The notes: a model not told the origin generated them from the sequence alone. Shown: positions 9,089 to 53,504, counted from the stretch's first letter. The stretch: 64,000 nt of DNA from Methylococcales symbiont of Iophon sp. n. MRB-2018 (GCA_003666325.1 QPIL01000118.1:2402-66401), one strand, 5' to 3'. Made by a program: numbers and translations.

Positions 9089-9127
9089 GACTCAAGACTC
9101 AAGACTCAAGACTCAAGACTCAAGACC
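9088..9127 (+). repeat. heptanucleotide tandem tract T1, (AGACTCA)x5 plus partial
   Basis: Read directly. The first A is the last base of the cbiA TAA stop. Confidence 0.95.
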
Positions 9128-9314
9128 CCTTGATTTTTGGTGATTTCTTATGGGTGTTAAAGTCTGGGCGGGGTTGGTTTTGTTAGTATGTTTTATCAGC
9201 AAAACGACCAAGAAATAGCCGTTATTTCACCAAATACTGCTTGTTTTGTCTATGATTTTTGTTTAAATTATTGTTATAAATTAGATGGTTGTTGTGTTTT
9301 TAAGGGTTGGCTAA
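9128..9314 (+). repeat. partial copy (E1) of the heptamer-bearing composite element: 3' module and right TIR
   Basis: 9171..9314 aligns with 21774..21905 and 30344..30485 (ggggttggttttgttagtatgttttatcagcaaaacgaccaagaaatagccgttattt...). It ends in tttttaagggttggctaa at 9297..9314. Confidence 0.85.
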
Positions 9315-9540
9315 TTATTGACCTATAGCTGTGGAAACCTTAATTTGAGGCTGTATATAGGCTGAAATTTTCATCGTTAGCTAGTAATCTAAGTTTTGCC
9401 CATGCTTAGATCATTTATTCTTGAAAATGGTAGTAGTTCTGACACTTAATGCAGGCATAGCCAAAATTAATGTACTTGAATTCACATCATAAGTGCAACA
9501 TGCCTTACGCCTTAGTTGGTAAAAACAGTATAATGCTGGG

Positions 9541-13019: not shown

Positions 13020-13042
13020 GTTATACCAAGTTTAAAAAATAA

Positions 13043-13076
13043 GGACTCAGGACTCAGGACTCAGGACTCAGGACTA
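13043..13076 (+). repeat. heptanucleotide tandem tract T2, (GGACTCA)x4 plus GGACTA
   Basis: Read directly. It lies 23 nt after the ycaR-like stop, in sense orientation, inside the lpxK-kdsB cluster. Confidence 0.95.
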
Positions 13077-13157
13077 ATATATGTTTAACAAATAAATACA
13101 CCAATCTAGCACTTATTAGTATATTTATTTTTTGAAAATGGTATTAGCTAAAGCATT

Positions 13158-20905: not shown

Positions 20906-20982
20906 GAGACCTCGGCATAACGCATGAACGGATAAAAAAGGCTAGAATTTTTCCATCTTTCAGCCAAAATAACGAGCAATAG
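20906..20982 (+). mobile_element. left half of a GAGACCTC-type MITE (no right terminus)
   Basis: gagacctcggcataacgcatgaacggataaaaaaggctagaatttttccatctttcagccaaaataacgagcaatag aligns with 35418..35494. No inverted terminus follows. Confidence 0.75.
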
Positions 20983-21119
20983 GACTCAATTTATCAATAG
21001 GACTTTTAGTGTTGAATTAATAAGTTGAGTAGTTACTAAAAATAAGGATTGTTTATTACAATGAGTATATAATCAGCGGTTTTATATTGTTTTAGGTTTA
21101 ATTTTTCAGGGATTTTCAA

Positions 21120-21449
21120 ATGATGAATAAAATTAATATTGCTCTGGTAAGGCTTTTTCAATTTGTTGTATTTGTTTTTTTTACATTTATGGTTTTAGCC
21201 TATTTTGGAGCAATGATTCTAGTGCCTTTGGATTTGGTGGTATTGATTATTAAAGTCATGGATGTTGTTGGTCTAGGGGGTATGATAGGTGCGGCAGTAG
21301 CAATACCGATAGTTGCTTATCTAGGCATGATCGTATACAAAACCCCAAGTTTAGTTGACATGATTGTAGGAATTGGTCTGGATTTAATCAAGCACGGTAA
21401 AGAACGTGTTGAGGCTTTTAACGCAATTGCTGAAAGCATAAAAGTTTAA
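21120..21449 (+). CDS. hypothetical membrane protein (109 aa)
   Basis: Three predicted TM helices. No family recognised. Confidence 0.5.
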   Translation: MMNKINIALVRLFQFVVFVFFTFMVLAYFGAMILVPLDLVVLIIKVMDVVGLGGMIGAAVAIPIVAYLGMIVYKTPSLVDMIVGIGLDLIKHGKERVEAFNAIAESIKV

Positions 21450-21453
21450 AAAA

Positions 21454-21600
21454 GACTAAGGACTAAGGACTCAAGACTCAAGACTCAAGACTCAAGACTC
21501 AAGACTCAAGACTCAAGACTCAAGACTCAAGACTCAAGACTCAAGACTCAAGACTCAAGACTCAAGACTCAAGACTCAAGACTCAAGACTCAAGACTAAA
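21454..21600 (+). repeat. heptanucleotide tandem tract T3, 21 units (GACTAAG x2, GACTCAA x18, GACTAAA)
   Basis: 147 nt read directly. It starts 4 nt after the stop of 21120..21449. Confidence 0.97.
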
Positions 21601-21905
21601 GTAACTGAAACCTTTGTTACCATACGTCATTCCCGAAGTCTGTTATCGGGAATCTAGTTTTAAACACCTGGATTTCTGCTTAGAACATGCAGGAATGACG
21701 GAGGGAGTGACGCGGATTTTATACCCTATTCAACAAATAACTCTGAATGAAAGAGCTTTAGTTGCTCTGTGTTTGGGGTTGGTTTTGTTAGTATGTTTTA
21801 TCAGCAAAACGACCAAGAAATAGCCGTTATTTACCAAATACTGCTTTTTTTGTCTAATTTATTGTTATAAATCAGAGGGTTGTTGTGTTTTTAAGGGTTG
21901 ACTAA
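21601..21905 (+). mobile_element. body of composite element copy E2 (hairpin module, 3' module, right TIR)
   Basis: 21601..21773 matches 44291..44478 in reverse complement. 21774..21905 matches 9171..9314 and 30344..30485. It ends tttttaagggttgactaa (21888..21905). Confidence 0.85.
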
Positions 21906-21946
21906 TTAAATGCGAATTTATTCAAAGTTTAAGAATAAATTCAAAC

Positions 21947-22627
21947 TTATATCGTACCCAGTGTCACTACGTTATTTCTCAAACTAATAACAGACCAGCC
22001 ATTCTTACGGGCATACTCCCGTAATTTATCATCAGGGTCTACGGCAACAGGGTTATCTACTCGTTGTAATAATGGCAAGTCATTATGAGAATCAGTGTAA
22101 AACCAACTGTCTTCTAATGTTTCTGATGAAGATTCTAGCCATTCTTCCAGCAATGTGACTTTACCCTCTTGATAACAGGGAGTACCAAGGAAATTTCCAC
22201 TATATTGACCATCAATAAATTCTGGCTTGGTTGCAAGCAGATTATCTATACCAAATAATTTTACAATAGGTTCGGTAATAAATCGGTTGGTGGCGGTAAT
22301 CACCATGACAGTATCACCTTTAAAGCGATGTTTATTGACCAAACGAATAGCAGGTTTTAGCAGAATAGGTTTAATCACTTCGGTGATAAATTGTTCTCGC
22401 CACTGATGCATTTTTTCAGCCTTGTGGAGAGCTAATGGTGCTAATGAAAAATGTAAAAATGCGCTAATATCCAGTTTCCCTTCTTTATAATCCTGATAAA
22501 ATTTGGCATTGGCTTCTTCATATTGCTCTTTATCAACAATACCTTGGTCAACAAGAAATTGTCCCCATAAATAATCGCTATCATCTGAAATAAGAGTGTT
22601 ATCAAGATCAAATATCGCTAAACTCAT
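21947..22627 (-). CDS. HAD-IB family hydrolase (SerB-like)
   Basis: 226 aa. HAD motif I is AIFDLDNTL, motif II is VITATN, and motif IV is ..YTDSHNDLPLL... Confidence 0.75.
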   Translation of the reverse strand: MSLAIFDLDNTLISDDSDYLWGQFLVDQGIVDKEQYEEANAKFYQDYKEGKLDISAFLHFSLAPLALHKAEKMHQWREQFITEVIKPILLKPAIRLVNKHRFKGDTVMVITATNRFITEPIVKLFGIDNLLATKPEFIDGQYSGNFLGTPCYQEGKVTLLEEWLESSSETLEDSWFYTDSHNDLPLLQRVDNPVAVDPDDKLREYARKNGWSVISLRNNVVTLGTI

Positions 22628-22780
22628 TTTTAAATTCTTTTTTTATTTGGTGAATTTGACTCATAAACGCACTCGCCTGAGCATAAAAGGTGTAAACATA
22701 GGTAGCTATTGAGTTGAAATATAAATGGATACCAATGTTGACATTGAATTTTTAAAAATATCGGCGCAAGGGTGATTCTT

Positions 22781-23494
22781 TTACAAAAAAACAGCGATTA
22801 ACGCGATAAATTGCTTTGTACCCAAGACATCTCTGAGTTTTGAGCTAAACAAATATGACTTCAAAAACGTAATCAGTTTGTTTAGCGGGGTCTTTGGAAG
22901 GATGAATGGATAGCGTCTAAACATTTCTTCCCTATCAGCACAGATTGCACTCATCTGTGCTGATATTTCATCTGAGAGAATGACAGGATTTTGCACAGCG
23001 TATAAATTAATATATTTATCATTGTTCATAAAATGATCTATTGGGCGCGATATTGCTTGCAAATACGGTATTAATTTTCTAGCACCACGGTTATTTAAAC
23101 AATAGCCATGCGTTCCATAGGTGGTTTCAGCGAATATCCTTACCCTGTGTGCTTGGTTTAACTTTTTGCTAAACCAAAAACTGTGTTTTGCTGGAATATA
23201 CCCTACAGGACTACGACACCCTAAAAGCATTAGCTCCCAGTTTTTGGGAAATTATCAATTTCTGCCAAACAATTTAGCAACGCATTGTCAAATTGGACAT
23301 TGTATTCAAGAATCAATGCTGTCTCAATATCATCACCATCTTTTGATAAATCAATTTATGACTCAAAGCACAATCGATTTTACCCTGACCATCGGTCTTT
23401 GAATACTTTTTATAGCTTGTTTTTCCGAATAAACGCTATTTATTTTCGTTGCACTGAGTAATTGCCCATTTACAGCATCAATAAATTCCACGTC
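22781..23494 (-). pseudogene. glycosyltransferase family 25 (LPS biosynthesis) pseudogene: 5'-truncated with at least 2 frameshifts
   Basis: GT25-like segments lie in three frames on the minus strand: DVEFIDAVNG.. (23494 downward), ..GKIDCALSHKLIYQKMV.. then DDIETALILE.., and the 149-aa ORF ..GTHGYCLNNRGARKL... No start or first ~35 residues are present. Confidence 0.7.
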
Positions 23495-23526
23495 TAAAAT
23501 ATATTTTTAGCAAAACAGCCCTAAGC

Positions 23527-23689
23527 CTTTAGTCTTTAGTCTTTAGTCTTTAGTCTTTAGTCTTTAGTCTTTAGTCTTTAGTCTTTAGTCTTGAGTCTTG
23601 AGTCTTGAGTCTTGAGTCTTGAGTCTTGAGTCTTGAGTCTTGAGTCCTTTTTATATATTTTTTAGTTTGGGTTTTTAAGGATTGACTAA
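23527..23689 (-). mobile_element. truncated inverted copy E4: left TIR plus heptamer tract T4 ((CTTTAGT)x9 (CTTGAGT)x8 on the + strand)
   Basis: The tract is 23527..23645. tttttaaggattgactaa at 23672..23689 matches the element TIR. On the minus strand it reads TIR - (ACTCAAG)n - (ACTAAAG)n, then abuts the truncated GT25 gene. Confidence 0.85.
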
Positions 23690-23750
23690 TTAGCGTACAA
23701 TTCAACACATAAGCCATTCTTTCACATCATTAAATAACGGAGTCACTTTA

Positions 23751-25379
23751 ATGTCATCACTCATAAAATCAGCCATTTGGCATGATCTTCAAAATCATTT
23801 TCATGACATCTCTAATTTACACATGAGAGACATGTTTGCTGATGATATTCATCGTTTTGATAAATTCTCTTTATGCTTCAACGATATTCTTTTCGATTAT
23901 TCTAAAAATAGAATAACTGATAAAACGCTACCGTTATTACTGGAACTTGCCAAACAAAGACAATTAGATAAAAAAATCAAAGCCATGTTTGCAGGTGAAA
24001 AAATCAACCAAAGTGAAGATAGAGCTGTTTTGCATATCGCATTGAGGAATCGCAGTAACCGCCCTATCTTAGTGGATGGTCGAGATATTAATGCCGATGT
24101 AAGGCGGGTTTTAAAAAAAATGCGGCGTTTTTGTGATGCTGTTCATTCGGGTAGCTGGCGTGGGTTTACCGGTAAAGTGATGACTGATGTGGTTAATATT
24201 GGTATAGGGGGTTCTGATTCAGGGCCAAGAATGGTTGTTAGGGCTTTACAGCCTTACTCGATAAATAAAATTCAAACACACTTTGTCTCTAATGTTGCAC
24301 AAGCCGACTTACTTAGCACGCTAAACAAATTGAACCCAGAGACCACTCTGTTTTTAATCGCATCAAAAACATTTACTACCCAAGAAACCATAACCAATGC
24401 CATTTCAGCTCGTAGCTGGCTGGTCAATGCATTATCAGACCAAAATGCAGTCGATAAACACTTCGTGGCTATTTCAACGAATACGGAAAAAGTCGTTGAA
24501 TTTGGTATTGCTCCAGAAAATACATTTGAATTTTGGGATTGGGTTGGTGGTCGTTTTTCTCTTTGGTCAGCCATCGGCTTATCCATCCCTTTAGCCATTG
24601 GCATGGATAACTTTGAAAAACTATTAGACGGTGCTCATGATGTTGATGAACACTTTAGGCTAACACCTTTCAAACAGAATATCCCCGTTATTATGGCGCT
24701 ACTAGGTGTTTGGTATAACAATTTTTTTAAAACCGAATGCCAGGCTATTTTACCGTATGGTCATTATCTACGGTATTTTCCTGCCTTTATGCAACAAGGG
24801 GATATGGAAAGTAATGGTAAAAGCGTTGATGTTGAAGGAAATGCAGTAGATTATCAGACTGGCCCTATTATATGGGGTCAAACAGGCACTAATGGACAAC
24901 ATGCCTTTTACCAACTTATCCATCAGGGTACAAAATTGATCCCCTGCGACTTTTTAGTACCAGCAACAAGTTATCATGACCTGCCAGACCATCACAATAT
25001 GTTGATTTCTAACTTTCTGGCTCAACCCCAAGCCTTGATGCAGGGAAAAACGGCAGAACAGGTCATCAGCGAACTTGACCTGTCCGAACACGATAGTATT
25101 CGGGTTAATGCCAAAGTTTTCCCTGGAAACATACCCACTAATTCATTTTTATTTAAACAATTAACAGCAAAAACACTGGGTTCATTAATTGCTCTATATG
25201 AACATAAAGTGTTTGTCCAAGGGGCAATATGGAATATCAACTCATTTGACCAGATGGGTGTTGAATTAGGAAAAGTTTTGGCTGGCGTTATTTTTCCAGA
25301 ACTGCAGAATAAAGATAAAGCCAGTAGTCATGATAGCTCAACCAATGGTTTAATTAATCATTTAAAAAAAATTCGCTGA
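23751..25379 (+). CDS. pgi: glucose-6-phosphate isomerase
   Basis: 542 aa. ..[12 protein letters not shown].., ..[12 protein letters not shown].. and ..[15 protein letters not shown].. are present. Confidence 0.95.
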
Positions 25380-25427
25380 CGTGGTGGAAAACTAAAATTT
25401 AATGGCTCCTCTATTCAACATAGACCT

Positions 25428-28400
25428 ATGAAAATACTCAATATTTATTTTAAGAATATTAATTCACTGGAAGGCGAAAATCGCATTCATTTTGATCAGC
25501 TACCCTTGTCTGAGTCGGGTGTTTTTGCCATTACAGGCCCTAATGGTTCAGGTAAATCGAGTATTTTAGATGTCATCACTTTAGCCTTATATGGAGAAAC
25601 ATTTCGTTTTGATCGCCCAGCTGATCATGTAATGACTAAAGCCACGACGGAAAGTTTTGCAGAGGTTGAGTTTGAATTAGCGGGTAATAGCTATCGTTCA
25701 AGCTGGTATGTTAAGAGAGATAGAAACAAAGCTCAGGGGGATTTATTGGCACCAGAAATGACATTACATCATTTGAATGACAGTGCGCAACTTATAGAGC
25801 AAAGTACGCAAAAAGTAAGAAGTCGTGTGGCTGAAATAACAGGGATGGATTTCCATAAGTTTAGTAAATCCATGATTTTGGCTCAAGGCGATTTTTCTGC
25901 TTATCTAAATGCACTTGATAGTGAGCGGATGGATATTCTGGAGAAAATCAGTGGTTCTGATATTTATCATACCCTTAAGAATCAGGCAGAAGAAAAAAAC
26001 AAAGTCGCTCAAACGCAATTACAGATATTACAACAAGATCTTAATGCCATCCCCATTGTAGATGCTGTGAGTAGAGAAGCCAACGAACTGGATTTAGCTG
26101 ATTTTCAACAACAGTATCTTGAGCTAAAACAAGAATATCAGGAAATACATCAGCAGTTAGTTTCTGTACAGAAAGTGAGTAATTTGCAAAGTCAGTCTAA
26201 AACTTTGACGCATCAGCAAAAACTATTAGATACACAGTTAGAAGAAAACCAGAGAAAACTGGATAAAATTGAATCCATGCAAGTGGTCAAGCGATTTGAA
26301 GATGATTTAAAAATACTTGATAATAAGCTTTCTGATACAGAACAAAGTCGGAAAACACTGGATTCTTATCGTAGTGAACTGGATTTATTGCAAAAACAAC
26401 TGAATGAGCACGAGTTTGATGTTAATACAGCCAGCACCCACAACACATCCTTATCAGAACAAAAAGCTAGTATAGAAAAAATTAAGTTGAAATTGAATGC
26501 CTTGAACTTAGCATTAGTACAAGAAAATGCTTTAATTCAATCAATGAACCAGCAAGCTGTTGAATATAAAACCACCCTAGAAGAGGGCGAGGTCTGGTTG
26601 CAAGAACATGCAGTGGATCAACATTTACTCAATGAATTTCCTGAATTTACTCGTTTATCACTTCTTAAACAGACACTGGCTGAAGCGACAGAAAAGCAGC
26701 AAGTATTTTTAAATTGGTCAAAAAACACCTCAAAAGGATTAAAACAATCTAAAGAACATAGTGAATCCTTGACTAAAAAAAGTGTAGATTTAGAGGCTCA
26801 GATTAAAGCAGATGAACAACTGTTAGAAACAATGAGTGAGGGTTATTCATTGCAACAGTTATATGAAATAAAACTGCAACAACAAGAAAGACTTGAACAA
26901 TTTCAAGAGTTAAGCGATCTTGCTAATGTCAATTCCAAAATGGGTAACAAAGGATTTTTAGAAAGCTTATTTCAATCTAAAGGTGCTGATAGAGAAGCAT
27001 ACGAATTAAAGCAGGAAGCTGAGCAATTGCAACTGGAAATCGGTAAAGAGCAAAGAATCATCATCATCTTGGAAGCCGCTGTCTTTAATGAAGCATTGTT
27101 ATCAAAAATGGAGGGAGATAGACAGCATTTAAAAGAGGATAAAGCGTGTTCTTTATGTGGCGCTCTGGATCACCCCTATCTAAAGTATCCGCCCGCTGTT
27201 TCAAATTCAAAACAAATATTGCTTGAACAACGCAAAAAACTTAAATATCTGAATACAGAGGCAAGCAGTTTGGTTAAACAAATTGCAATTTCTAAAAACC
27301 AAGTAAAAATCGATAAGGAAAAAGCGGGTAAATTAGAAGTCATTTGTTCTCAGTGGAATAGTCTAGCAAACAAGTTAAATGTTGCTGGTATGGGTTTAGA
27401 TATTGAAAAAGTTTCAGCTATTAAAGAATTAGTTAAGGAAAAAAAATCTGAATTATCTATTTTGAATACGCTGATTAAGAAATATTCCAAGCAGCAAGCA
27501 GTGATGGTTGAAGCAAAGGAAACGATTGAGCTTAACAAAAATAACTTAGCTCGTTTGAGTAAAGAGATTAAAGTTTTAACTTCTGAAATAAATACTCGCC
27601 CGGATGAGTCTGCTGAGTTAGAGCAAAAGGTTTCCAGCATTCAGCAAGATGTAAAAACTTTAGAAACAAAAATTACTGAACAACTTAATGTATTAGGTGA
27701 AAAAAAACCGAGTAAAAAAATTAAAGAAGATGAATTGATTCGACACTTAAATGCACGCAAACAAGCCTATAATTCAAGAAAAGTACATGCAAAAACCTTA
27801 TTAGAACAACTGCAAAGTTTAGAAACAAAAACAGCGGAATCGCTGTTTAAGATTGAACAACTAACAAAAGATATTGAAAAAAATACAGCATTGGATCAAC
27901 AACAAGAGTTAGCTGGTTTGCATTTGTCGCTACTAGAAAAACAAAGATTAATTGCCGATAAAGAAGTTATTTATGGGCAACAAGAAAAAGATTCAGCGGC
28001 CTTAAAACAAAATCTGCTAGAAAGCAGTCAAGATCTGGCTCAAGGTGATTTGAATATGTTGAGAGAGGGTGTTGAATTAGTTAAAGACAAAGGGTATGTG
28101 TTACAGACACGCTTAGAATTGACCCAACGAGTTAATAAAATAGGGAAAGGCATAGAGCAATCTCAAACAGAACTGGATAAAGAAAAAGCGATGCTTTTAA
28201 CGGATAAAAAAGAAGATGGGTTGTTACCTTTAGATAAATCCATGAAAGAAAAATTACATATTACAAAACAGGAAATAGATACATTACAGAACAAATTAAA
28301 ACAACAAAATATCATGCAAGAAAAGTATGATGCACTTTTGCAAAAAGTGACCCAGCAAAAAGAAAAAGTCAAAGCCAGTGAGAAAGAAATTAAATTTATC

Positions 28401-28877
28401 TCGGAAGATAATGGCATACACTTTCGTCATAAAGTGCTGGAAGGGATGGCAGATAAATTATTATCCGAATCCAATCAGGTGTTAGAGAAAATTAGTGGAC
28501 GCTATTTTTTGCGAAAAGCTGAGAGTGAACATGGTCTGGCACTGGAAATAGAAGATAGCAAACAAAAAAATGTCAGGCGTTTACCTAAAACATTATCTGG
28601 TGGGGAGAGTTTTATCGTTAGCTTGGCGTTAGCAATGGGCTTAGCAGAAATGGCTAGTAATGGCCATGCTTTGGATTCTTTATTTCTGGATGAGGGTTTT
28701 GGTAATTTAGATGCCGAAGCACTTTATGTGGCTATGACAACGCTGGAAAGTTTAAAAATACACGGAAAAACAGTGGGCGTTATTTCCCACGTTGAAAGTG
28801 TACGTAAGCGGATTAAAACACAGATAAAAATGATTAAAAAACCAAATGGCATGAGTGCTTTAAAGGTGATTTCTTGA
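25428..28877 (+). CDS. sbcC: SbcC-type SMC-like ATPase (exonuclease subunit C)
   Basis: 1149 aa. The N-terminus MKILNIYFKNINSLEGE..FAITGPNGSGKSSILDVITLALYGET parallels E. coli SbcC. It has a long coiled coil, a zinc hook CSLCG, and a C-terminal signature LSGGESF plus Walker B LFLDEGFG. Confidence 0.88.
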   Translation: MKILNIYFKNINSLEGENRIHFDQLPLSESGVFAITGPNGSGKSSILDVITLALYGETFRFDRPADHVMTKATTESFAEVEFELAGNSYRSSWYVKRDRNKAQGDLLAPEMTLHHLNDSAQLIEQSTQKVRSRVAEITGMDFHKFSKSMILAQGDFSAYLNALDSERMDILEKISGSDIYHTLKNQAEEKNKVAQTQLQILQQDLNAIPIVDAVSREANELDLADFQQQYLELKQEYQEIHQQLVSVQKVSNLQSQSKTLTHQQKLLDTQLEENQRKLDKIESMQVVKRFEDDLKILDNKLSDTEQSRKTLDSYRSELDLLQKQLNEHEFDVNTASTHNTSLSEQKASIEKIKLKLNALNLALVQENALIQSMNQQAVEYKTTLEEGEVWLQEHAVDQHLLNEFPEFTRLSLLKQTLAEATEKQQVFLNWSKNTSKGLKQSKEHSESLTKKSVDLEAQIKADEQLLETMSEGYSLQQLYEIKLQQQERLEQFQELSDLANVNSKMGNKGFLESLFQSKGADREAYELKQEAEQLQLEIGKEQRIIIILEAAVFNEALLSKMEGDRQHLKEDKACSLCGALDHPYLKYPPAVSNSKQILLEQRKKLKYLNTEASSLVKQIAISKNQVKIDKEKAGKLEVICSQWNSLANKLNVAGMGLDIEKVSAIKELVKEKKSELSILNTLIKKYSKQQAVMVEAKETIELNKNNLARLSKEIKVLTSEINTRPDESAELEQKVSSIQQDVKTLETKITEQLNVLGEKKPSKKIKEDELIRHLNARKQAYNSRKVHAKTLLEQLQSLETKTAESLFKIEQLTKDIEKNTALDQQQELAGLHLSLLEKQRLIADKEVIYGQQEKDSAALKQNLLESSQDLAQGDLNMLREGVELVKDKGYVLQTRLELTQRVNKIGKGIEQSQTELDKEKAMLLTDKKEDGLLPLDKSMKEKLHITKQEIDTLQNKLKQQNIMQEKYDALLQKVTQQKEKVKASEKEIKFISEDNGIHFRHKVLEGMADKLLSESNQVLEKISGRYFLRKAESEHGLALEIEDSKQKNVRRLPKTLSGGESFIVSLALAMGLAEMASNGHALDSLFLDEGFGNLDAEALYVAMTTLESLKIHGKTVGVISHVESVRKRIKTQIKMIKKPNGMSALKVIS

Positions 28878-29144
28878 TTTTTATATTCGATATAAAACTA
28901 TAAAACTATAAAAATTTCTAATTAGCTATCAAGTGTTTTTTTATGCTGAGGTCTCCTTAATACAATGGTTAAAAACAACACTGGCGAATTTAACCCATAA
29001 GTGCAACACTTCCATTCAAAAAATAGTACTTGAAAAGTTTTACCAGCGTGGTACCTTTAGCGATTCAATAATAATAATAATAAATAACCCTATCAATACC
29101 TTGTTTTTCATAGGGTTAAAAAATTTCATATAGAGAGGAAAAAA

Positions 29145-29888: not shown

Positions 29889-30060
29889 TAATTACTTTGT
29901 AATTCAGATGATTATAGTTATTTTATTGTTTCCAATTAAGCAATTTGTAGCCAACAGAAAAATGGCACAATATATCAAAATGCAAGAATATATTTAACAA
30001 CTAAATTCCCCCTCAAGCTATCAATAATCCCCATAAAAATAGGATCAACACATTGATTAT

Positions 30061-30086
30061 CCGTTCATGAGTTATGCTGAGGTCTC
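30061..30086 (-). mobile_element. solo right terminus of the GAGACCTC-type MITE
   Basis: ccgttcatgagttatgctgaggtctc is the reverse complement of the first 26 nt of the 35418 element. Confidence 0.75.
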
Positions 30087-30089
30087 TTA

Positions 30090-30488
30090 TAGTTAGTCAA
30101 GCCTTAAAAAGACTCAGGACTAAAGACTAAAGACTCCTTGATTTTTTATTAGAAGTAGGGTGCGTTTGCCCGCCAAGGATGGTGGAAATGCAGTAAGATT
30201 GTCTGGAACAATCTTTGCCCACGCACCAGTTAAGACAGTATCTGGATTCCTGCTTAGAACATGCAGGACGGGGAGTGAAGCGGCTCTTATACCATGCTCA
30301 ACAAATAACTCTGAATGAAAGAGGTTTAGTTGCTCTGTGTTTGGGGTTGATTTTATTAGTATGTTTTATCAGCAAAACGACCAAGAAATAGCCGTTATTT
30401 TACTAAACGCTGCTTTTTTTCTATGGTTTTTGTTTAAATTATTGTTATAAATCAGATGATTGTTGTATTTTTAAGGGTTGACTAAGTA
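30090..30488 (+). mobile_element. complete MITE-like composite element E3 (TIRs plus internal heptamer tract T5)
   Basis: The left end tagTTAGTCAAGCCTTAAAAA (30090..30110) and right end TTTTTAAGGGTTGACTAAgta (30468..30488) are inverted repeats, 17/18 over the core. The internal tract is GACTCAG GACTAAA GACTAAA (30111..30131). No ORF of transposase size is present. Confidence 0.8.
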
Positions 30489-30635
30489 AACTCCCTAAGT
30501 TGCAACGCCTGACATAGATAAAAAAAAGCACCAGACGGGTAAGATATTTGTTGCAAATTGCCTTAGCATAGTGAATTACCCTTGATTGAGTTGTTCAGAT
30601 CTAGATTAAGATTTTACTCTATGCTATAGTCATAT

Positions 30636-33277: not shown

Positions 33278-33491
33278 GCTAAGAAATTATCTTAAAGAAA
33301 AAAAAAGAGTGACCTTAAATGAATTAGTGATTCATTTTGATGTAGATGCTGATGCGCTCAGAGGCATGTTAGCCCAATGGATGAAGAAAGGTAAAGTGCG
33401 TCAATTGCCCATAGGTTCTGGTTGTGGTTCAACATGTATTAAATGCGATCCTACTCTGACTGAGTTTTATGAGTGGGTAGTCAGGGACTAA
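33264..33491 (+). CDS. feoC: FeoC-like winged-helix protein
   Basis: 75 aa. ..LSELRNYLKEKKRVTLNELV.. is followed by a Cys cluster GCGSTCIKCDP. The stop TAA lies inside a GGACTAA repeat unit. Confidence 0.8.
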   Translation: MILSELRNYLKEKKRVTLNELVIHFDVDADALRGMLAQWMKKGKVRQLPIGSGCGSTCIKCDPTLTEFYEWVVRD

Positions 33492-33505
33492 GAACTAAGG
33501 ACTAA
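33485..33505 (+). repeat. heptamer tract T6a (GGACTAA GAACTAA GGACTAA)
   Basis: Read directly. It contains the feoC stop codon. Confidence 0.9.
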
Positions 33506-33514
33506 GTCCTGATT

Positions 33515-33633
33515 CTTTAGTCTTTAGTCTTTAGTCTTTAGTCTTTAGTCTTGAGTCTTGAGTCTTGAGTCTTGAGTCTTGAGTCTTGAGTCTTGAGTCT
33601 TGAGTCTTGAGTCTTGAGTCTTGAATCTTGAGT
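33515..33633 (-). repeat. heptamer tract T6b, 17 units ((CTTTAGT)x5 (CTTGAGT)x12 on the + strand, one unit CTTGAAT)
   Basis: Read directly. On the minus strand it reads (ACTCAAG)n then (ACTAAAG)n, in sense with proS. Confidence 0.97.
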
Positions 33634-35340
33634 CCCCATTTTTTCTGTTAAAAATTCAATAATTCCATTAAGCGCAATGTCCTCGCTGTCTTTATCTGTT
33701 CTGGCTTTATATTCAATAGTACCAGCATCCAAGGATCTTTCACCCAAGACTAGGCGATGCGGAATGCCAATGAGTTCCATATCTGAGAACATAAAACCTG
33801 CACGTACTTTACGATCATCGAGTAATACTTCAAAGCCTGCGTTAAGCAGTTGTTGGTAGAGGCTATCAACAGCTACTTTTAAGCGCTCCGATTTATGCAT
33901 ATTCATCGGGCATAAAGCAATTTGAAATGGGGCTAAATTAGCCGACCAGATGATCCCTTTATCATCATGGCTTTGTTCGATAGCAGCAGCTACAATTCTG
34001 GAAATGCCTATACCGTAGCAACCCATAATCATGGTTTGGTTTTTGCCTGCTTCATTGATAACACAGGCTTTCATTGCTTTGCTGTATTTATCACCTAATT
34101 GAAAAATATGACCTACTTCAATACCACGGGCAAGGGTGATTAAGCCTTTTCCATCGGGACTTGGGTCACCTTCAACTACCATACGAATATCTTCAATTTG
34201 TTGAGGTAAGGGCAGGTCTTTTCCCCAATTTACGCCTGTGTAGTGCTTTTCATTTTGATTGGCACCACAAACAAAATCAGACAGTAGGCTAGCGCTACGG
34301 TCTACAATTACAGTGATATTCAACCCAATAGGGCCAATTGAACCAGGTTTACATTGGCAACTGGCAAGAATTTGTTCATCACTGGCAAACTCTAAAGGTG
34401 AAAGTACCGCTTCTAATTTTTCTGCTTTAAGTTCGTTAAGTTCATGGTCTCCACGTAATAATAATGCAATTAATTGATCATTCTCACCCTTAACAATTAA
34501 GGTTTTTAAGCATTGTTGAGCCTTTATGTTAAAAAATTGACTGACCTCTTCAATGCTATGTTGTTTAGCGGTATCAACTAGCGTTAGTTCTGCTATGGCA
34601 GAAGAGCGTGAAGCAGAGGGCATAATGGCCTCTGTTTTTTGTATATTTGCGGCATAGTCACTTTCAGTAGAAAAGGCTATGGCATCTTCGCCCGAATCTG
34701 CCAGTACATGAAACTCATGCGATATTGCACCACCTATAGAACCGGAATCTGCGATAACAGCACAAAACTTTAATCCTAATTGATTAAATATATTACTGTA
34801 TGCCTGATACATGACATCATAGGTTGCTTGTAAAGACTTTTGATCTAAATGAAATGAGTAAGCATCTTTCATGATAAATTCACGAGAGCGCATAATACCA
34901 AAGCGAGGACGAATCTCATCACGTACTTTGGTTTGAATTTGATAATAGTTGATCGGTAATTGTTTGTAGCTTTTTAACTCGTTTCTAGCCAGATCAGTAA
35001 TGATTTCTTCATGCGTTGGACCTAGGCAAAAATCACGATCATGACGGTCTTTTAAACGTGCTAATTCTGGGCCGTATTGCTCCCAGCGTCCTGTTTCTTG
35101 CCAGAGTTCAGCAGGCTGCAAAACAGGCATTAATACCTCTAAAGCACCTGCTTTTTCCATTTCCGCTCGAGTGATTTTTTCTACTTTACGCAACACTCTT
35201 AATCCTAAAGGCAACCAGGTATACAAACCCGCTGCTAGTTTACGAATTAAACCTGCTCGAATCATTAGTTTATGGCTGGAAATTTCAGCATCCGCAGGAA
35301 TTTCTTTGACAGTGCTAAGAGGAAATTGAGAAGTACGCAT
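33538..35340 (-). CDS. proS: prolyl-tRNA synthetase with a repeat-encoded C-terminal tail
   Basis: 600 aa. Bacterial-type ProRS with an insertion (editing) domain. ..[17 protein letters not shown].. is class II motif 2 and ..GCYGIGISR.. is motif 3. The last 31 residues GTQDSRLK(TQDSRLK)x3TKD are translated from tract T6b. Confidence 0.95.
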
Positions 35341-35417
35341 GGTGTATAAATGTATTCGATAAAAAATCAGCTATTCTACCGATTTAACAGCAAGTCGGGT
35401 AAGTATCTTAGCAAAAA

Positions 35418-35576
35418 GAGACCTCAGCATAACTCATGAACGGATAAAAAAGGCTAGAAGTTTTTCATCTTTCAGCCAAAATAACGTGCAATAGCTTACT
35501 ATTACACTTGTATTTTGACTAAAACCTGAAAAATTATATCGTTTTTTTCTCATCGCCAGAGTTATGCTGAGGTCTC
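35418..35576. mobile_element. 159-bp MITE with perfect 18-bp terminal inverted repeats
   Basis: gagacctcagcataactc (35418..35435) is the exact reverse complement of gagttatgctgaggtctc (35559..35576). There is no coding capacity. Related half and solo copies are at 20906, 30061, 28941, 2531, 14161 and 61377. Confidence 0.85.
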
Positions 35577-35706: not shown

Positions 35707-36000
35707 TTACGCCTTTGTTACTGATAATTGGATAACATGCAGTTCTTTACGATGCTGCTCAAACTGCCAAAGATCGTATTGGGATTGCTGGTTTAACCAA
35801 CTCTCAGATGAGGTATTAAATGCAATGGATAAGCGCACAGCCATTTCGGGACTTATCCCCGATTTACCGTTAAGAATGGTTGATAATGTTTTGCGGCTAA
35901 CACCAAGTCCTTTAGCTGCCTCAGTTACAGTTAAGCCTAAAGGCTCGATGCAAAGTTCTTTTAAAACTTTGCCGGGGTGTGTGGGATTGTGCATTAACAT
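35707..36000 (-). CDS. higA: HigA-family antitoxin (XRE HTH)
   Basis: 97 aa. ..[50 protein letters not shown].. is the canonical HigA/VapI HTH. Confidence 0.87.
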
Positions 36001-36009
36001 AAGATAGCC

Positions 36010-36288
36010 TCAATGATAGTTTTCATAATCTACAATTTCAGCGTGAGATCCATTAAAACAAAATGTCACACGCCAGTTTTCACTTACACGTACAGACCAA
36101 ATTTTTGCTCGATTACCTGTGAGTTGGTGCAGGAACAGGTCTGGTAAATCCATATCACTAGGTGATGAAGCAGCATTAAGACGACCAAGAATTAATTGGA
36201 GCCGCTTTATATGCTTTGCTTGTATGGCTGATTTGCGACCAGTTTTAAAGAATAATTCTAGACCCTTATGCTTAAAGTTCTGTATCAT
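36010..36288 (-). CDS. higB: HigB-type (RelE/ParE superfamily) toxin
   Basis: 92 aa. MIQNFKHKGLELFF..G....I........RL..L.. matches the plasmid-maintenance-killer HigB pattern. The toxin-first order, 9 nt upstream of higA, also fits. Confidence 0.85.
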   Translation of the reverse strand: MIQNFKHKGLELFFKTGRKSAIQAKHIKRLQLILGRLNAASSPSDMDLPDLFLHQLTGNRAKIWSVRVSENWRVTFCFNGSHAEIVDYENYH

Positions 36289-36518
36289 TTATTAAATGCA
36301 ACCAATAACGTAACAGGTGTCAATTGAGTTTGGCACATACGCCAAAATCAGATGCCGTTGCCAAGTGTTCGATGAACTCTGACAAAGCACTGAACTTTGA
36401 TATAAACTGACCTTTGAATCGGCTGGAACTTCAATCGACCCCTTTGATTCTTTTATCTCGATATTTTTTAAGGTTTTGATTCATTGCAAAAACCACTTAA
36501 TACGGTAATAATTCAATT

Positions 36519-37483
36519 TTATCCAGTGACATGACAGTCTCCCGATAATTTATTCGCCAACTTATCCAGCATATCTTTTACCATAGCTGACAATGTATAT
36601 TGGGGATGCCATCCCCACTCATTCTGAGCACAACTATCATCTATATGTTTTGGCCATGAGTCTGCAATGGCTGGCCTGATTGGGTCAACTTGATAGCTTA
36701 TTTTAAATTCAGGGATATACTGCTTTATTTCAGCCGCTAATTGTTTAGGTGTAATGCTCATCGCTGTGATATTAAAAGCATTATGATGAGTTAAATGCTT
36801 GCTATCCGTTTGCATAAGACTGATTGAAGCATTTACAGCATCTGGCATATACATCATATCTAATTGCGTATCTGCTTTAAGAAAGCAGCAGTAAGACTGG
36901 CATTGTAAGGCGGCATAAAATATGTCTACTGCATAATCGGTTGTACTGCCTCCTGCTTGTGTTTTATATGAAATTAAACCAGGATAGCGTAAACCCCTGA
37001 CATCAACTGCATAATGTTTTTGATAGTAATCACAAAGCAATTCACCTGAGACTTTGGTTACACCATACATAGTAGGCCTTTGAATAGTATCTTGCGGGGT
37101 GTTGCTGGCGTTTTTGGACCAAATGCACCAATGGAGCTAGGGAAAAAGACAGCACATTGGTTTAAACGAGCTACTTCCAGTACATTGAACAGACCAGTCA
37201 TATTAATATCCCAGGCTTCTTGTGGTCGCTCTTCGGCAACGGCTGATAACAGTGATGCTAAATGGAATATGGTGTCAATATGGTATTTTGGGACAACTTT
37301 GTTTAATGTTGCCCGATCTCTTATATCAAAGGCAATATCAGTGCTGGCTTCTGTTGCTTCTATATTGTCTTTCTGACTATAACCCGCAGCAATAACACTG
37401 CTAAACCGAAGGCTTTGGCGTAAAGCCAGAGTAAGTTCTGAACCTATTTGTCCTGTTGCACCCGTGACTAACACTTTTTTCAT
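36519..37483 (-). pseudogene. SDR-type L-threonine 3-dehydrogenase / NAD-epimerase family gene split by one frameshift
   Basis: The N-terminal ORF (MKKVLVTGATGQIGSEL..SSIGAFGPKTP) and C-terminal ORF (..MYGVTKVSGELLCDYY..YPGLISYKT..GGSTTDYAVDIF..ADSWP..) are collinear with one ~318-aa protein. The frame switches near the GCGGGG run at ~37095..37105. Confidence 0.7.
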
Positions 37484-37965
37484 AAAAAAATCTCCTGCAC
37501 AAAGCTGATTATTTGAATACTTTATTCAGAAAGTTTTACTACCGTTACTCCATAATAACGATCTTAAAATAAAACATTCAAAACAATTAATATTTTAATA
37601 ACTGTATCAATTTTGTTAGCTATTGAGTGAATTTTGAATGCTTTAAATGGTTTTATATAAATTATCCCGTCCTATAATTAAGACAGCTTTCTTAGCTTTT
37701 TTATCAATCTGGAATATTCAGCAAAAAAAACAAGTCAGGGGAGGTGGTAACGTAAATAGAAGACAATATTGAGCATAGCAGTACAAAATATTGGAAATAA
37801 ATTTTGGAGTGTTCAACCCCCCCAAAAATGTAGAGGCATAGTAAATGTTACATAACAAATGCTTGCATCTGACCATTAAAAGCGTCACAATTTTTGCTGT
37901 TAATTATTTTGCCGTTAACCATGCAAAATAATCACCTGCTAATAGCAAAAAAACCAACAGAGAAT

Positions 37966-38166
37966 ATGATGGCAAAGAATAAACAAGCAGTAGAATCGCT
38001 AGAAAAACAACTTTGGAAATCGGCAGATAAACTTAGAAAAAACATAGACGCTGCCGAATACAAACATATTGTTTTGGGCTTGATTTTTCTCAAATATATC
38101 TCTGATGCTTTCGAGGAGTTGTACACCAAACTAAAAGCAGGTGAGGGCGAGTTTATTGATGACTAA
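37966..38166 (+). pseudogene. hsdM: type I restriction-modification methylase (HsdM) N-terminal stub
   Basis: [51 protein letters not shown].. is the HsdM_N signature. The ORF stops after ~66 residues, and no methyltransferase domain, hsdS or hsdR follows. Confidence 0.8.
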
Positions 38167-38262
38167 GCTAATCATGGAGAGTTTGCCACAATTAAAGCAT
38201 TTGAATTCGTTTGATTTTAAAAACAACAGGTCGAATTCAACCTGCTCAAAATGGACGTTAAT

Positions 38263-38667
38263 ATGAGCAAAAAGAATGCGCTTATTGAGGTAAAAGGAAT
38301 TCTTGTCTCAACTTTTCAAAGCAACAAAGAAGATTTTATATCATTAACAGATATTGCAAAATCAAAAGATGGCGACTCCAGAGCCGCAGATATCATTAAA
38401 AATTGGATTCGCAACAGAGGAACTATTGAATTTATAGGCACTTGGGAACAAATACATAATTCAAATTTTAAAGTGGTCGAATTCGACCACTTTAGAATGA
38501 ATGCAGGTTTAACAAGTTTTGTTCTTAGTCCTGGGAAATGGATAGAAAAGACAGATGCGATTGGCATAGTTGTAAAAGGTGGAAGATACGGTGGTCGGCC
38601 CCCGTGGTCGCCCTCCCCGTGGTCACCCAAATTACAATCACCCAAAAAACGAGGTATGGATGTATGA
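38263..38667 (+). pseudogene. KilA-N domain protein, C-terminally truncated
   Basis: MSKKNALIEVKG..DFISLTDIAK..NWIRNRGTIEFIGTWEQ..KWIEKTDAIGIVVKGGRYGG follows the KilA-N pattern. After GRYGG it runs into unrelated GC-rich sequence (RPPWSPSPWSP..). Confidence 0.7.
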
Positions 38668-39686
38668 GCAAAATCGCAGAAAACAAACAAGCTTATTCGC
38701 CGCCTTTTGAAATCACCCCAGCCATTTTAAATCAGGTCAGCTTGATTAGTGAAAAAATTGGTGAGCTATCCCTCCAGAAAAACTGGCTTTCTCCGCAGCT
38801 ACGCAAAAGCAATCAAATAAAAACCATTACCGGAACATTGCAGATTGAAGGCAATACCCTAACCGAAGAACAGGTATCAGCCTTGTTTGATGGTAAAAGA
38901 GTATTAGGCTCATCTCGTGAATTAGCAGAGGTACAGGGTGCGATTGTTGCCTACCAACAGTTAAACCAGCTTGACCCGCTCAGGGTAGAGGATTTACTTA
39001 ATGCGCATACTTTATTAATGGCGGATGTGTTAAAAAACGAAGGGCATTTTAGAAAACAATCCGTAGGCATACATAAGGGCGATAAAGTCATTCATGTTGC
39101 TCCGCCTGCCCATAAGGTATCAGGTTTAATGGCTGATTTATTAACATGGCTTAAAAACAGTGAACATCACCCACTGATTACTAGCTCAGTTTTTCATTAT
39201 GAGTTTGAGTTTATCCACCCGTTTATGGATGGAAATGGTCGCATGGGTCGTTTATGGCAAACCTTGATCTTGTCTCGCTGGAACCCTCTGTTCCAATATT
39301 TGCCACTGGAAAGCGTTGTCCGCGACCATCAGCAATCCTATTATCAAGCATTGGCACAAGCCGACAGTGAAGCCAATGCAACAGTATTTATTGCCTTTAT
39401 GCTGAATGCAATTTTACAAACAATAGAGAAAAACGCCACTGTAAACGCCCCTGCAAACGCCCCTGTAAACGCCCCTGTAAACGCCCCTGTAAATTTGCAA
39501 GAGATGAAAACCATCGAGGCAATACTTGTGTTGGTTTCACAAAACACCCAGATCACACGGCAACAGATGGCAAAACAGCTTGGCAAGGATATACGCACCA
39601 TTGCCAGAGCGATTAAGCAATTGCAGCAGAACAACCAACTAAAACGAGTGGGATCAGATAAAACTGGATATTGGGAACTATTATGA
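38664..39686 (+). CDS. fic: Fic/DOC family protein with C-terminal winged-helix domain
   Basis: Fic motif HPFMDGNGRMGRLW. The start at ATG 38664 (GAGG upstream) is preferred over the 38538 extension. The C-terminus ..ITRQQMAKQLGKDIRTIARAIKQLQ.. is a wHTH. Confidence 0.87.
   Translation: MSKIAENKQAYSPPFEITPAILNQVSLISEKIGELSLQKNWLSPQLRKSNQIKTITGTLQIEGNTLTEEQVSALFDGKRVLGSSRELAEVQGAIVAYQQLNQLDPLRVEDLLNAHTLLMADVLKNEGHFRKQSVGIHKGDKVIHVAPPAHKVSGLMADLLTWLKNSEHHPLITSSVFHYEFEFIHPFMDGNGRMGRLWQTLILSRWNPLFQYLPLESVVRDHQQSYYQALAQADSEANATVFIAFMLNAILQTIEKNATVNAPANAPVNAPVNAPVNLQEMKTIEAILVLVSQNTQITRQQMAKQLGKDIRTIARAIKQLQQNNQLKRVGSDKTGYWELL
39432..39491 (+). repeat. in-frame 12-nt tandem repeat x5 inside fic
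   Basis: aacgcc(a/c)ctg(t/c)a is iterated five times, encoding NATV-NAPA-NAPV-NAPV-NAPV between the Fic core and the wHTH. Confidence 0.9.
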
Positions 39687-39750
39687 ACAAAACCACCAAA
39701 AACAAACAATTCTATATCAACGAACACAAGGTGTTTGCGGAGGTTGAGGT

Positions 39751-41493
39751 ATGAGCATTTTAATTAAATCGATTCGTATTGCAGGGTTTCGAGGTCTTGA
39801 AAATATAGAAGTTGAGCTTGAGAAAACAACGGTATTAACAGGCATGAACAATACGGGTAAAACCTCGTTTTTAAAGGCTATACAACTGGCACTTGGGAGT
39901 CGTCAGTTTATAAGTCAGGATGATTTCTTTATACGGGGTAATGATACTGCAAGTAAGATTATTATTGATGTATTAATAATCCCAACTGGTAAAGACGGCG
40001 AGCGGGTTGAAGCTTTTACCGATGGTTGGGAGAGGCTTTTTACGACTAATAGAATACAAGATGATGGTGTTAACAGTTTTGTTCCTCTTCGGACGATCGT
40101 CTCTTTTGACAAAATTAAAAACAGCTATAAAGCAGAGCAAAGCATCTTAAAAACATGGGGTGACTTTTTGCAAAATAACAAAAACTGGTTTGATTCTGAT
40201 AATGGCATAAAAATAGCATTTAATTTTGACGAACTGCCATTTTTTTATATGGATGCACAACGGGATATTTTAGAAGATACCAAACTTAGAAACTCTTATC
40301 TTGGAAAAATGCTATCAAAAATCGAGTATTCACCTAAGGATATAAAAGAGTTAGAGGAGCAGATAAGCGGTTTGAATGAAAAAGCCGTAAGCAGTAGCGA
40401 TATTTTAACCACTATAAAATCTACGCTAAAAGGTTTGGATTCAGCAATGGGTACAAGCAGTGACGGAATAGAGATAACACCATTCACCAAGAAAATAAGA
40501 GATTTAAACAAGGGATTAACTATCTATTACAGCGATAATCAAGATAGTTTTTCCATGGAATATCACGGAATGGGTACAAGAAGCTGGTCATCACTGCTTA
40601 CTTTAAAGGCCTTTATATCTTTATTAACAACAAATGCAAAAAAAGAAAATTCGGTATTCTATCCAATATTAGCGATTGAAGAGCCAGAAGCACATCTGCA
40701 CCCTAATGCACAGAAAAAATTGTATGGTCAAATTAATAGCATTGCTGGGCAAAAGATCATTTCTACTCACTCACCCTACATTGCTGCAACAGCAGAACTC
40801 AAGCAGATCCGCAGTTTTTATAAAGATACACAAGTGCGTTGTGGAAAAATTGATATTGAAAAATTAAAGTCAGAAGAGCTTAGAAAGATTAATCGACAGG
40901 TTATTAACAGTCGAGGTGAAATCTTTTTTTCAAAGTTGATTGTGTTTTTTGAAGGCGAAACAGAAGAGCAGGCACTCCCTATTTTTGCTGAGGAATATTT
41001 TGCTAAAACACCCGTGGAAATGGGGCTGGATTTTGTGGGTGTGGGAGGATATGGAAATTACCTACCATTTTTACGTTTTGCTAAATCGTTGAATATTCCA
41101 TGGCTTATATTGAGTGATGCTGAATACGATGTTGTTAAAAGTGTAAACAAACAGCTTAATGACAGTGGCGCATCAAATGAAGGTAAATCAATCGTATTTC
41201 TTGATAATGGAAATAACTTTGAGAAACAGCTAATGGCTGATGGCTATTCAGATGAAATTAAACAAGCTATTATTTCATCTGAAAATTATCGCAATGACCA
41301 GCATAGACAAGCAAAACAAGATGAGATAGCAGGGTATGATGGTGCCGAACTCTATAAAATTATTACAGAGAATAAAACCCAATTTGGCCCAGCGATAGCA
41401 GAGCAAATCACAAAAAGTGCACAACCCCTGCCGCTAAAAATTGTAGCGTTGTTTGTTAAAATAAAGTCAATATTGGAGATAAGTGGAGATTGA
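39751..41493 (+). CDS. gajA: OLD-family ATPase/Toprim nuclease (GajA-like)
   Basis: 580 aa. N-terminal ABC-type ATPase (..VLTGMNNTGKTSFL.., ..ILAIEEPEAHLHPNAQ.., ..ISTHSPY..) and C-terminal Toprim (..LIVFFEGETEEQALP.., ..LILSDAEYD..). Confidence 0.82.
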   Translation: MSILIKSIRIAGFRGLENIEVELEKTTVLTGMNNTGKTSFLKAIQLALGSRQFISQDDFFIRGNDTASKIIIDVLIIPTGKDGERVEAFTDGWERLFTTNRIQDDGVNSFVPLRTIVSFDKIKNSYKAEQSILKTWGDFLQNNKNWFDSDNGIKIAFNFDELPFFYMDAQRDILEDTKLRNSYLGKMLSKIEYSPKDIKELEEQISGLNEKAVSSSDILTTIKSTLKGLDSAMGTSSDGIEITPFTKKIRDLNKGLTIYYSDNQDSFSMEYHGMGTRSWSSLLTLKAFISLLTTNAKKENSVFYPILAIEEPEAHLHPNAQKKLYGQINSIAGQKIISTHSPYIAATAELKQIRSFYKDTQVRCGKIDIEKLKSEELRKINRQVINSRGEIFFSKLIVFFEGETEEQALPIFAEEYFAKTPVEMGLDFVGVGGYGNYLPFLRFAKSLNIPWLILSDAEYDVVKSVNKQLNDSGASNEGKSIVFLDNGNNFEKQLMADGYSDEIKQAIISSENYRNDQHRQAKQDEIAGYDGAELYKIITENKTQFGPAIAEQITKSAQPLPLKIVALFVKIKSILEISGD

Positions 41494-41496
41494 ATC

Positions 41497-44287: not shown

Positions 44288-44290
44288 CTT

Positions 44291-44478
44291 AACAAAATCA
44301 ACCCAAACACAGGGCAACTAAAACGCTTTCATTCAGAGTTATTTGTTGAATAGGGTATAAGATCCGCTTAAACTCCCTCCGTCATTCCTGCATGTTCTAA
44401 GCAGCAATCCAGATGTTTAAAACTAGATTCCCGATAACAAACTTCGGGAATGACGTGTAGTAACAGAGGTTCCAGTTA
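44291..44478 (-). mobile_element. truncated inverted copy E5 of the composite element (hairpin module only)
   Basis: Reverse complement aligns with 21601..21790. It is cut off at the MOSC gene stop (44287). Confidence 0.85.
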
Positions 44479-44555
44479 CTTTAGTCTTTAGTCTTTAGTC
44501 TTTAGTCTTTAGTCTTTAGTCTTTAGTCTTTAGTCTTTAGTCTTTAGTCTTGAGT
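44479..44555 (-). repeat. heptamer tract T7 ((CTTTAGT)x10 (CTTGAGT)x1 on the + strand)
   Basis: Read directly. It contributes the last codons (..TQD) and the TAA stop of the RND pump gene. Confidence 0.95.
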
Positions 44556-53462: not shown

Positions 53463-53504
53463 AGAGGATTGAAGGAGAAATTAGCACTAAAGGGTCGGAG
53501 TGAC

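Follow-up and report, generated by a model that had tools for sequence, protein, structure and literature searches.

The window analysed here, the whole 64,000-nt stretch of DNA from the Methylococcales symbiont of Iophon sp. n. MRB-2018, carries within its 64 kb five dispersed copies or fragments of one repeat family (E1 to E5) together with a further element, E7. The E family is probably an IS630-type MITE in which a heptamer tract is both an internal part and a breakage point, whose modules form a mosaic and which spread after the lineage split. The first-pass annotation had proposed a non-autonomous element with terminal inverted repeats (TIRs), copies of which share subsets of modules and carry the heptamer tract as cargo or product; empty sites in a sister genome, matching termini outside the window and a consensus of the ends all agree with that proposal.

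E3 is a two-ended element with a heptamer tract inside its left end

E3 occupies positions 30096-30482, 387 bp between flanking TA dinucleotides, and is non-coding, its only ORFs (52 and 58 aa) being mechanically called. The left-flank TA (30094-30095) is a candidate target-site duplication; TA is also found after every right end and at the empty sites of the sister genome. The left TIR (GTCAAGCCTTAAAAA, 30096-30110, + strand) matches the right TIR (30468-30482, − strand, reading TTTTTAAGGGTTGAC on the + strand and followed by TA at 30483-30484) at 14 of 15 positions. When the ends are drawn longer, as TTAGTCAAGCCTTAAAAA (30093-30110) and TTTTTAAGGGTTGACTAA (30468-30485), the inverted match is 17/18; the annotation had described TIRs of 18-21 bp. 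The ANTA lying beyond the TA is symmetric at E3, so that the exact end of the element is uncertain by a few bases, but the empty sites described below put the end at ...TTGAC and make TA(ANTA) the target. The repeat core is therefore only 15 bp (14/15) and the remainder of the longer repeat is target sequence. TA is present on both sides of E3 and of E7, 2 bp being a weak duplication signal at 37% GC (the GC content of the window is ~37%).

The ends recur across the window. Allowing at most one mismatch, the motif TTAGTCAANCCTTAAAAA occurs five times (9297−, 21888−, 23672−, 30093+ and 30468−); at three mismatches there are six matches against ~1.06 expected, a number reached by 0 of 100 shuffles. 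Likeness between the TIRs survives the building of a consensus, in that TTTTTAAGG..TG.CTA is unchanged in 7/7 aligned ends, and in each of the seven ends examined the next bases are TA and then ANTA or GTTA.

Directly inside the left TIR, where the annotation had placed it, lies a tract of four heptamers (AAGACTC AGGACTA AAGACTA AAGACTC; 30108-30136, + strand; 4.0 copies at 30108-30135 according to TRF), which starts within the A-run of the left repeat. It is followed on the same strand by a 103-nt module unique to E3 (module X, 30137-30239; fold z-score −1.4) with the nested stems GGTGCGT/ACGCACC and AAGATTGT/ACAATCTT. The first 10 nt of module X (CTTGATTTTT, 30137-30146) are common to E1, and 9101-9138 is 89% identical to 30109-30146. 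Next comes a middle module (30240-30342, +) that is common to E2 (21668-21774) and E5, with 85-90% identity among the three (85.5% between 21668-21910 and 30242-30490; 85.7% between 30240-30358 and 44414-44290). The last internal part is a 3′ module (30343-30467, +) common to E1 and E2, which is unstructured (fold z-scores 0.04 and −1.0). It had been described as a conserved module of ~140 bp, and three copies of ~145 nt are indeed found in the window (9170-9317, 21775-21908 and 30343-30488), with 87-90% identity.

The other copies are subsets of the same parts

Only one of the five E copies, E3, is two-ended, and the truncated or one-ended E1, E2, E4 and E5 contain just those subsets of parts that the annotation had listed. 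E1 (9087-9313, +) consists of a 5.7-unit tract, the linker CCCTTGATTTTT, the 3′ module, the right TIR and TA, without a left TIR; its tract starts inside the stop codon of a cobQ-like gene. E2 (21450-21904, +) begins immediately 3′ of a stop codon with a 21-unit tract and continues with a hairpin module (H), the middle and 3′ modules, the right TIR and TA, likewise without a left TIR. E4 (23516-23688, −) contains the left TIR, a 26-nt spacer, a 17-unit tract and nothing else. E5 (44288-44558, −) is made up of an 11-unit tract, which overlaps the stop codon of an RND pump gene, followed by H and the middle module; it breaks off 17 nt into the 3′ module and has no TIRs. Its sequence from 44558 to 44290 is 90.4% identical to 21522-21790 of E2. 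The position and orientation of the tract relative to the other parts are identical in 5/5 copies, while its length varies from 4 to 21 units.

Module H folds better than its shuffles (z = −3.7 for the E2 copy and −2.7 for that of E5). In the window the sequence CGTCATTCC is confined to four sites, which form two inverted pairs bounding 76-bp palindromic units at 21625-21700 and 44380-44455. This unit, nested in E2 and E5, resembles a CGTC-tagged REP doublet.

E7 (13024-13143, +) is a complete 120-bp MITE of a sister family. It reads TA/CCAAGTTTAAAAAATAA, (AGGACTC)5, ..., TTATTTTTTGAAAATGG/TA (slashes mark junctions here and below), with TIRs matching at 17/19 positions, and its tract, which starts at 13042 directly inside the left repeat, is built from a heptamer different from that of the E tract.

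Exact 22-24-mers taken from the core of the 3′ module had no match in 185,579 reference genomes and a metagenome collection. Two sets of short-read contigs (ERR15286148 and SRR7464867) encode identical proteins and represent the same strain with the same insertions and no polymorphism; these contigs stop inside the repeats, as is expected of multi-copy DNA.

E2, E4 and E7 are missing from collinear loci of a sister genome

A scan based on FeoB assigns the window to Methylococcales. Orthologous loci were fetched through protein searches from MAGs of the Methylococcales symbiont of Hymedesmia sp. (L086, L087 and L088), which is the closest relative (FeoB identity 95%; flanks 94-97% identical in nucleotide sequence) and is referred to as the sister genome. 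Contig L086 is collinear with window positions 20989-28890 at 94-95% identity, but lacks both E2 and E4, tracts included. At the E2 site, between the stop codon of a 109-aa gene and TTTATTCAAAG, it has 24 nt (TTCTTAAGTATAATTAAGTTCTAA) as against ~455 nt in the window, and across the right junction the window has TTGAC/TAATTAAATG where L086 has AAGTA/TAATTAAGTT. E4 (23516-23686 in this comparison) stands in place of 520 nt of L086, with a right junction of GGATTGAC/TAATTAGCG versus CCCAA/TAATTAGCG. At both elements the divergence between window and sister starts exactly at TTGAC/TAATTA, and TA is present at both empty sites. E7 is missing from L088, which has 60 nt of non-homologous sequence there (L088 13487-13546). 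All three elements are thus absent from collinear sister loci, yet none of the three sites represents a clean insertion: the sister sequence replaced amounts to ~13 nt at E2, 60 nt at E7 and 520 nt at E4. The E3 locus itself is rearranged in the sister genome, and the comparison of orthologous sites rests on E2, E4 and E7. We also considered whether a local inversion had split a single element into E2 and E4, and rejected this because the genes between them are oriented alike in the two genomes.

At E4 a GT25 gene, which encodes 279 aa in L086, has lost its first 75 nt, and a 149-aa ORF is what remains in the window. The remnant (22781-23515) is only 87% identical to its sister counterpart, compared with 94-96% elsewhere, and is therefore probably a pseudogene. 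The E copies are 85-90% identical to one another, close to the 87% of this pseudogene between the genomes, from which we infer that the burst of E elements dates to around the lineage split.

The ends point to an IS630-type element

The annotation had stated that the window holds no transposase, and we found none: no transposase domain was detected in 27 window ORFs scanned against Pfam, and when an IS630 DDE fragment was compared with the entire window by tblastn, the best E value was 0.62. Among the related sequences examined, no autonomous partner with ends identical to those of E (TA/GTCAANCCTTAAAAA) was found. Directly upstream of the sister MFS gene, at the position that E1 has in the window, there is a truncated PF13358 (DDE_3) transposase. 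Full-length IS630-family relatives on metagenome contigs consist of an HTH ORF overlapping a DDE_3 ORF, between ends of the form TA/CAAAATTCAAAAAATAAC ... TTTTTTGAATTTGG/TA. The ends of E7 align closely with those of IS-A, an IS630-family element from L092 and L095. The ends of E follow the layout of IS-A (TA, a CAA core and, at a fixed distance, an A5 run); they exceed those of IS-A by 2 nt and differ from them in sequence.

The same termini also occur outside this genome, with E-like right ends on two unrelated metagenome contigs, L117 and L121. In L117 the similarity covers the last ~50 nt of E1-E3, at 80-85% identity (E = 1.6e-8). In L121 an IS630 transposase gene is interrupted towards its 3′ end, at or beside a TA and with one extra A at the junction, by a diverged E-like copy that lacks a tract. 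Taken together, the alignment of E7 with IS-A, the layout of the E ends and the E-like ends of L117 and L121 make an IS630-type MITE the best-supported classification of the E family, as judged from its sequence. We also asked whether the 3′ module is a recognisable transposase remnant; tblastn with the C-terminus of an IS630 transposase gave a collinear but non-significant match (E 0.26-11), and such an origin is no more than possible.

Truncation occurs at the tract, which supplies stop codons to neighbouring genes

In every truncated copy the truncation point is the tract: E1 and E2 run from the tract to the right end, E4 from the left end to the tract, and E5 from the tract to the middle module. 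Native DNA gives way to tract at native strings rich in A and similar to the inner TIR (CCTTAAAAA): GTTTAA/ for E2, CAATTTAAAAAA/ for the RND gene and CAGAAAAAAT/ for a proS-like gene. In the RND pump (44544-44568) the last 7-8 residues are replaced and the stop codon lies inside the tract. Two convergent tracts without E modules (33480-33634), absent from the sister genome, follow feoC (+ strand, 3 units) and the proS-like gene (− strand, 18.6 units). The feoC stop codon is within the first heptamer (33480-33490), and the proS-like ORF (33538-33640, − strand) extends 32 codons into its tract (TQDSRLK repeated four times), the sister protein ending in ...EFLTEKIG. The annotation had read the positions of the elements as a tendency to land at gene ends, which is instead largely a by-product: it is the tract-bearing end, stripped of its TIR, that abuts stop codons, and not the opposite one.

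No tract is present in the sister genome at the E2, E4, E7 or feoC/proS sites, which indicates that the tract is cargo of these elements in this lineage, and no tract of the E or E7 kind was found in ~58 kb of sister sequence examined. The sister does have a different array of its own, (TTTTCAG)4(TTTTTAG)4, in a divergent intergenic region (L088 6290-6345). In three other genera (FeoB identity 72-79%), tracts follow the feoC stop codon without E-type TIRs, at L007 12549-12597 (AGACTAA)7, L032 12559-12579 (AGGCTAA)3 and L037 11861-11888 (AGGTGAA)4, so that in Methylococcaceae tracts are not exclusively MITE cargo. The E-like element without a tract in L121 shows the ends to be independent of the tract. 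Further related heptamer tracts were seen in Methylococcaceae, including Crenothrix MAGs (L067 and L070 too), with AAAGGCT among the units listed.

Alternative explanations

The tracts after feoC raise the possibility that the tract came first, that is, that heptamer arrays at gene 3′ ends are old and possibly functional (in a 3′-UTR or termination-like role) and that TIRs and modules gathered beside them with the tract as target. The TIR-less tracts of L007, L032 and L037, the lack of E modules at the feoC/proS tracts of the window, and the derivation of the stop codons of feoC, the RND gene and the proS-like gene from tracts would all be accommodated by such an order of events. However, the tracts of E3 and E7 sit between both inverted ends and so are inside the element, that of E4 follows its left end in the same orientation, the sister genome lacks tract and modules alike at the E2, E4, E7 and feoC/proS sites, and the E-like element of L121 has no tract. 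We consider this order of events unlikely. Less likely still is that E3 arose by chance or recombinational joining of two inverted one-ended fragments, an E4-like stub and an E1-like right end, which might be solo IS ends. Four of the five copies are one-ended, E3 lies exactly at a synteny breakpoint with flanks that are not adjacent in the sister, and its 103-nt module is unique, all of which would fit a juxtaposition. Against it, the order of parts in E3 (left end, tract, CTTGATTTTT linker, middle module, 3′ module, right end) is the order found piecewise in E1, E2 and E5, and in E7 the same genome has a complete element with both ends and the tract inside; recombination between two full copies would look alike and would still imply a MITE.

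It is also conceivable, though barely so, that the modules work as RNAs or as regulators (for instance as small RNAs, terminators or promoters) and are kept for their effect on neighbouring genes and not for mobility. Module H does fold better than shuffled sequence (the z values of −3.7 and −2.7 given above), three right ends face gene starts (MFS, feoA and pgi), and the terminal TTGAC of the TIR resembles a −35 box. These points are outweighed by the absence of structure in the 3′ module, by promoter and terminator scans over E2-E4 that returned no more than chance, and by the absence of the modules from the orthologous sister sites and from 80 related Methylococcales loci; E2, moreover, faces the 3′ end of a convergent gene. 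A search against Rfam points the same way, since two tRNAs alone passed the gathering thresholds and nothing credible was matched even at E ≤ 10.

Proposed explanation

According to the IS630-type MITE model that we favour, a DDE transposase encoded elsewhere would presumably have moved the ~387-bp E3 in trans into a TA target. The (AAGACTN)n microsatellite would be part of the element, lengthened and shortened by slippage. Illegitimate or tract-to-tract recombination would then delete the left end and the adjacent DNA up to a coding sequence, and the outcome would be either a one-ended copy whose tract abuts or supplies a stop codon (E1, E2 and E5) or a left-end stub (E4). Deletion limited by selection on the neighbouring gene would account for the tracts that abut or overlap stop codons, and the geometry of deletion would explain the coupling between the orientation of tract and gene. 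The inner modules would be a patchwork of a nested 76-bp palindromic hairpin unit (E2 and E5), an insert specific to E3 and the 3′ module, which may be the decayed 3′ end of a parent insertion sequence. The family would have spread after the split from the lineage of the Hymedesmia sponge symbiont, and it now appears to be largely immobile.

The model gives at least some heptamer microsatellites of bacteria a concrete source that can be checked, as cargo of small TA-inserting transposons. In a compact symbiont genome the effects include the loss of transposon ends, the truncation of a glycosyltransferase and three proteins with tract-encoded C-termini or stop codons, and synteny breakpoints, possibly with a 35-kb inversion, coincide with tracts. 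For annotation, such repeats break short-read assemblies at predictable places and can lengthen ORFs artificially. A much broader version, which we regard as doubtful, would have bacterial heptamer arrays (cyanobacterial STRR-like, Beggiatoaceae and Methylococcaceae) born in and spread by IS630-type MITEs and outliving the ends as recombination hot spots that rewrite gene 3′ ends (stop codons and C-termini) and drive inversions; the TIR-less feoC tracts would then be old relics.

Comparison with known systems

Nezha of Anabaena/Nostoc is reportedly a bacterial MITE derived from IS630/Tc1-mariner. By description, E is like MITEs of this type in being short and non-coding, in having TIRs with TA at both ends and in its many partial copies, and IS630-family transposases (HTH + DDE_3) with similar TA-flanked ends occur in its lineage. 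What E adds to them is a heptanucleotide microsatellite just inside one end.

BrickBuilt of Porphyromonas gingivalis is a MITE in which a spacer-less tandem array lies between a 'leader' and a 'tail' with small inverted ends, and it is intergenic with variable copies (PMC4596501). E has an architecture of this type, a tandem array between parts with inverted ends, and the likeness is by architecture alone: the BrickBuilt unit is 23 nt versus 7 nt in E, the host belongs to another phylum, and its description claims neither a superfamily nor a TA target (PMC4596501). A bacterial MITE with an internal tandem array is therefore already known, and what is worth notice here is that a microsatellite sits just inside one end of the transposon and appears to take part in truncation and rearrangement. 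Families of the Chunjie and QMITE type are described as having few full-length copies and many partial ones without TIRs or duplications (PMC10969869). Copies of E are likewise mostly truncated, but its truncations all fall at the internal microsatellite and are not scattered.

Bacterial heptanucleotide arrays, such as the cyanobacterial STRR and the TAACTGA repeats of Beggiatoaceae, are intergenic, lie near gene ends, have a patchy phylogeny and have no accepted origin (PMC4679880). Sets of TAACTGA sit just upstream of start codons (PMC4679880), whereas the tracts described here lie within TIR elements flanked by TA and at 3′ ends. REP and REPIN sequences (PMC3116915, PMC3733652) are similar to the nested 76-bp unit of E2 and E5, with its two inverted, CGTCATTCC-tagged hairpin halves; unlike them, E as a whole has TIRs and TA ends, the REP-like part being a nested sub-module only. 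No RAYT-like ORF was present among the window ORFs scanned. Our search of the literature turned up no paper that ties heptamer arrays to elements with TIRs, nor any that describes such tracts in Methylococcales. AAGACTC is also the heptamer of the phase-variable repeat in the prophage gene neuO of E. coli K1 (PMC3046976), and its identity with the tract unit (e.g. 21473-21597) is almost certainly a coincidence.

Neighbourhood of E3 and rearrangements relative to the sister genome

E3 starts 205 nt beyond the 3′ end of tRNA-Cys (29888), and its neighbours include an SbcC-like gene (assigned by synteny with L086), a 160-aa ORF, feoA and feoB. The annotation had given a distance of about 200 nt from the tRNA, which is right, and had taken this for a classic integration neighbourhood, which has no diagnostic value here: tRNA genes are relevant to integrase-driven elements and not to a TA-flanked TIR type such as E3, and in the sister genome it is a member of a different MITE family, M2, that is found there. 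E3 was also considered as a tRNA-linked integrative element and rejected, since the ORFs scanned contain no integrase domain and the ends are inverted and not direct, besides the presence of M2 at the sister locus. The link between E3 and tRNA-Cys is probably coincidental.

M2 in its full form is 159 bp (35418-35576) and ends in 18-bp repeats (GAGACCTCAGCATAACTC); its 5-bp duplications read AAAAA in the window and TTAAT in the sister. Its terminal 32 nt are found at 30057-30088 (− strand; 100% identical to 35416-35447), 5 nt to the left of the TA that flanks E3. Further M2 sequence occurs at 20906-20982 of the window and at L004 15506-15650, and an M2-like terminus lies beside IS5-like transposase remnants at ~8384 of L088.

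Synteny with the sister genome breaks within ~15 nt of the right end of E3 (30500), at E5 (44568) and near E1 (9475), and also at M2 ends (35418 and 20989). The left flank of E3 is orthologous to the tRNA-Cys/M2 locus and its right flank passes after 15 nt into the upstream region of feoA, two places that do not adjoin each other in the sister. There, 5.3 kb separate the RND operon from the MFS gene and both point the same way; in the window the two are 35 kb apart and inverted, with E5 and E1 at the junctions. A single inversion between two inverted tracts would account for this arrangement, and two such tracts may have mediated an inversion of ~35 kb; in that event the MOSC and cobQ-like genes would be convergent neighbours in the sister genome. 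A search for the MOSC ortholog yielded short contigs from an organism other than the sister.

Several other repeats and gene clusters were observed in the window. A ~50-nt repeat is found at 9475-9531, 57641-57691 and 61385-61433, as well as upstream of the sister MFS gene (L088 9942-9992). Defence and toxin-antitoxin genes cluster at 35707-43362 and 59110-61042 and encode a HigB-like toxin with an HTH partner, KilA-N and Fic proteins, an OLD-like ATPase with a UvrD helicase (Gabija-like) and an AAA_15/AAA_21 ATPase (59110-60474). The Fic-domain ORF (38538-39686) contains an in-frame 12-nt tandem repeat (AAACGCCCCTGT, 5.2 copies, 39431-39493). Finally, the region downstream of a TonB-dependent receptor gene (53388-54377) contains direct repeats of 89 nt at 85% identity and of 148-177 nt at 92-99%.
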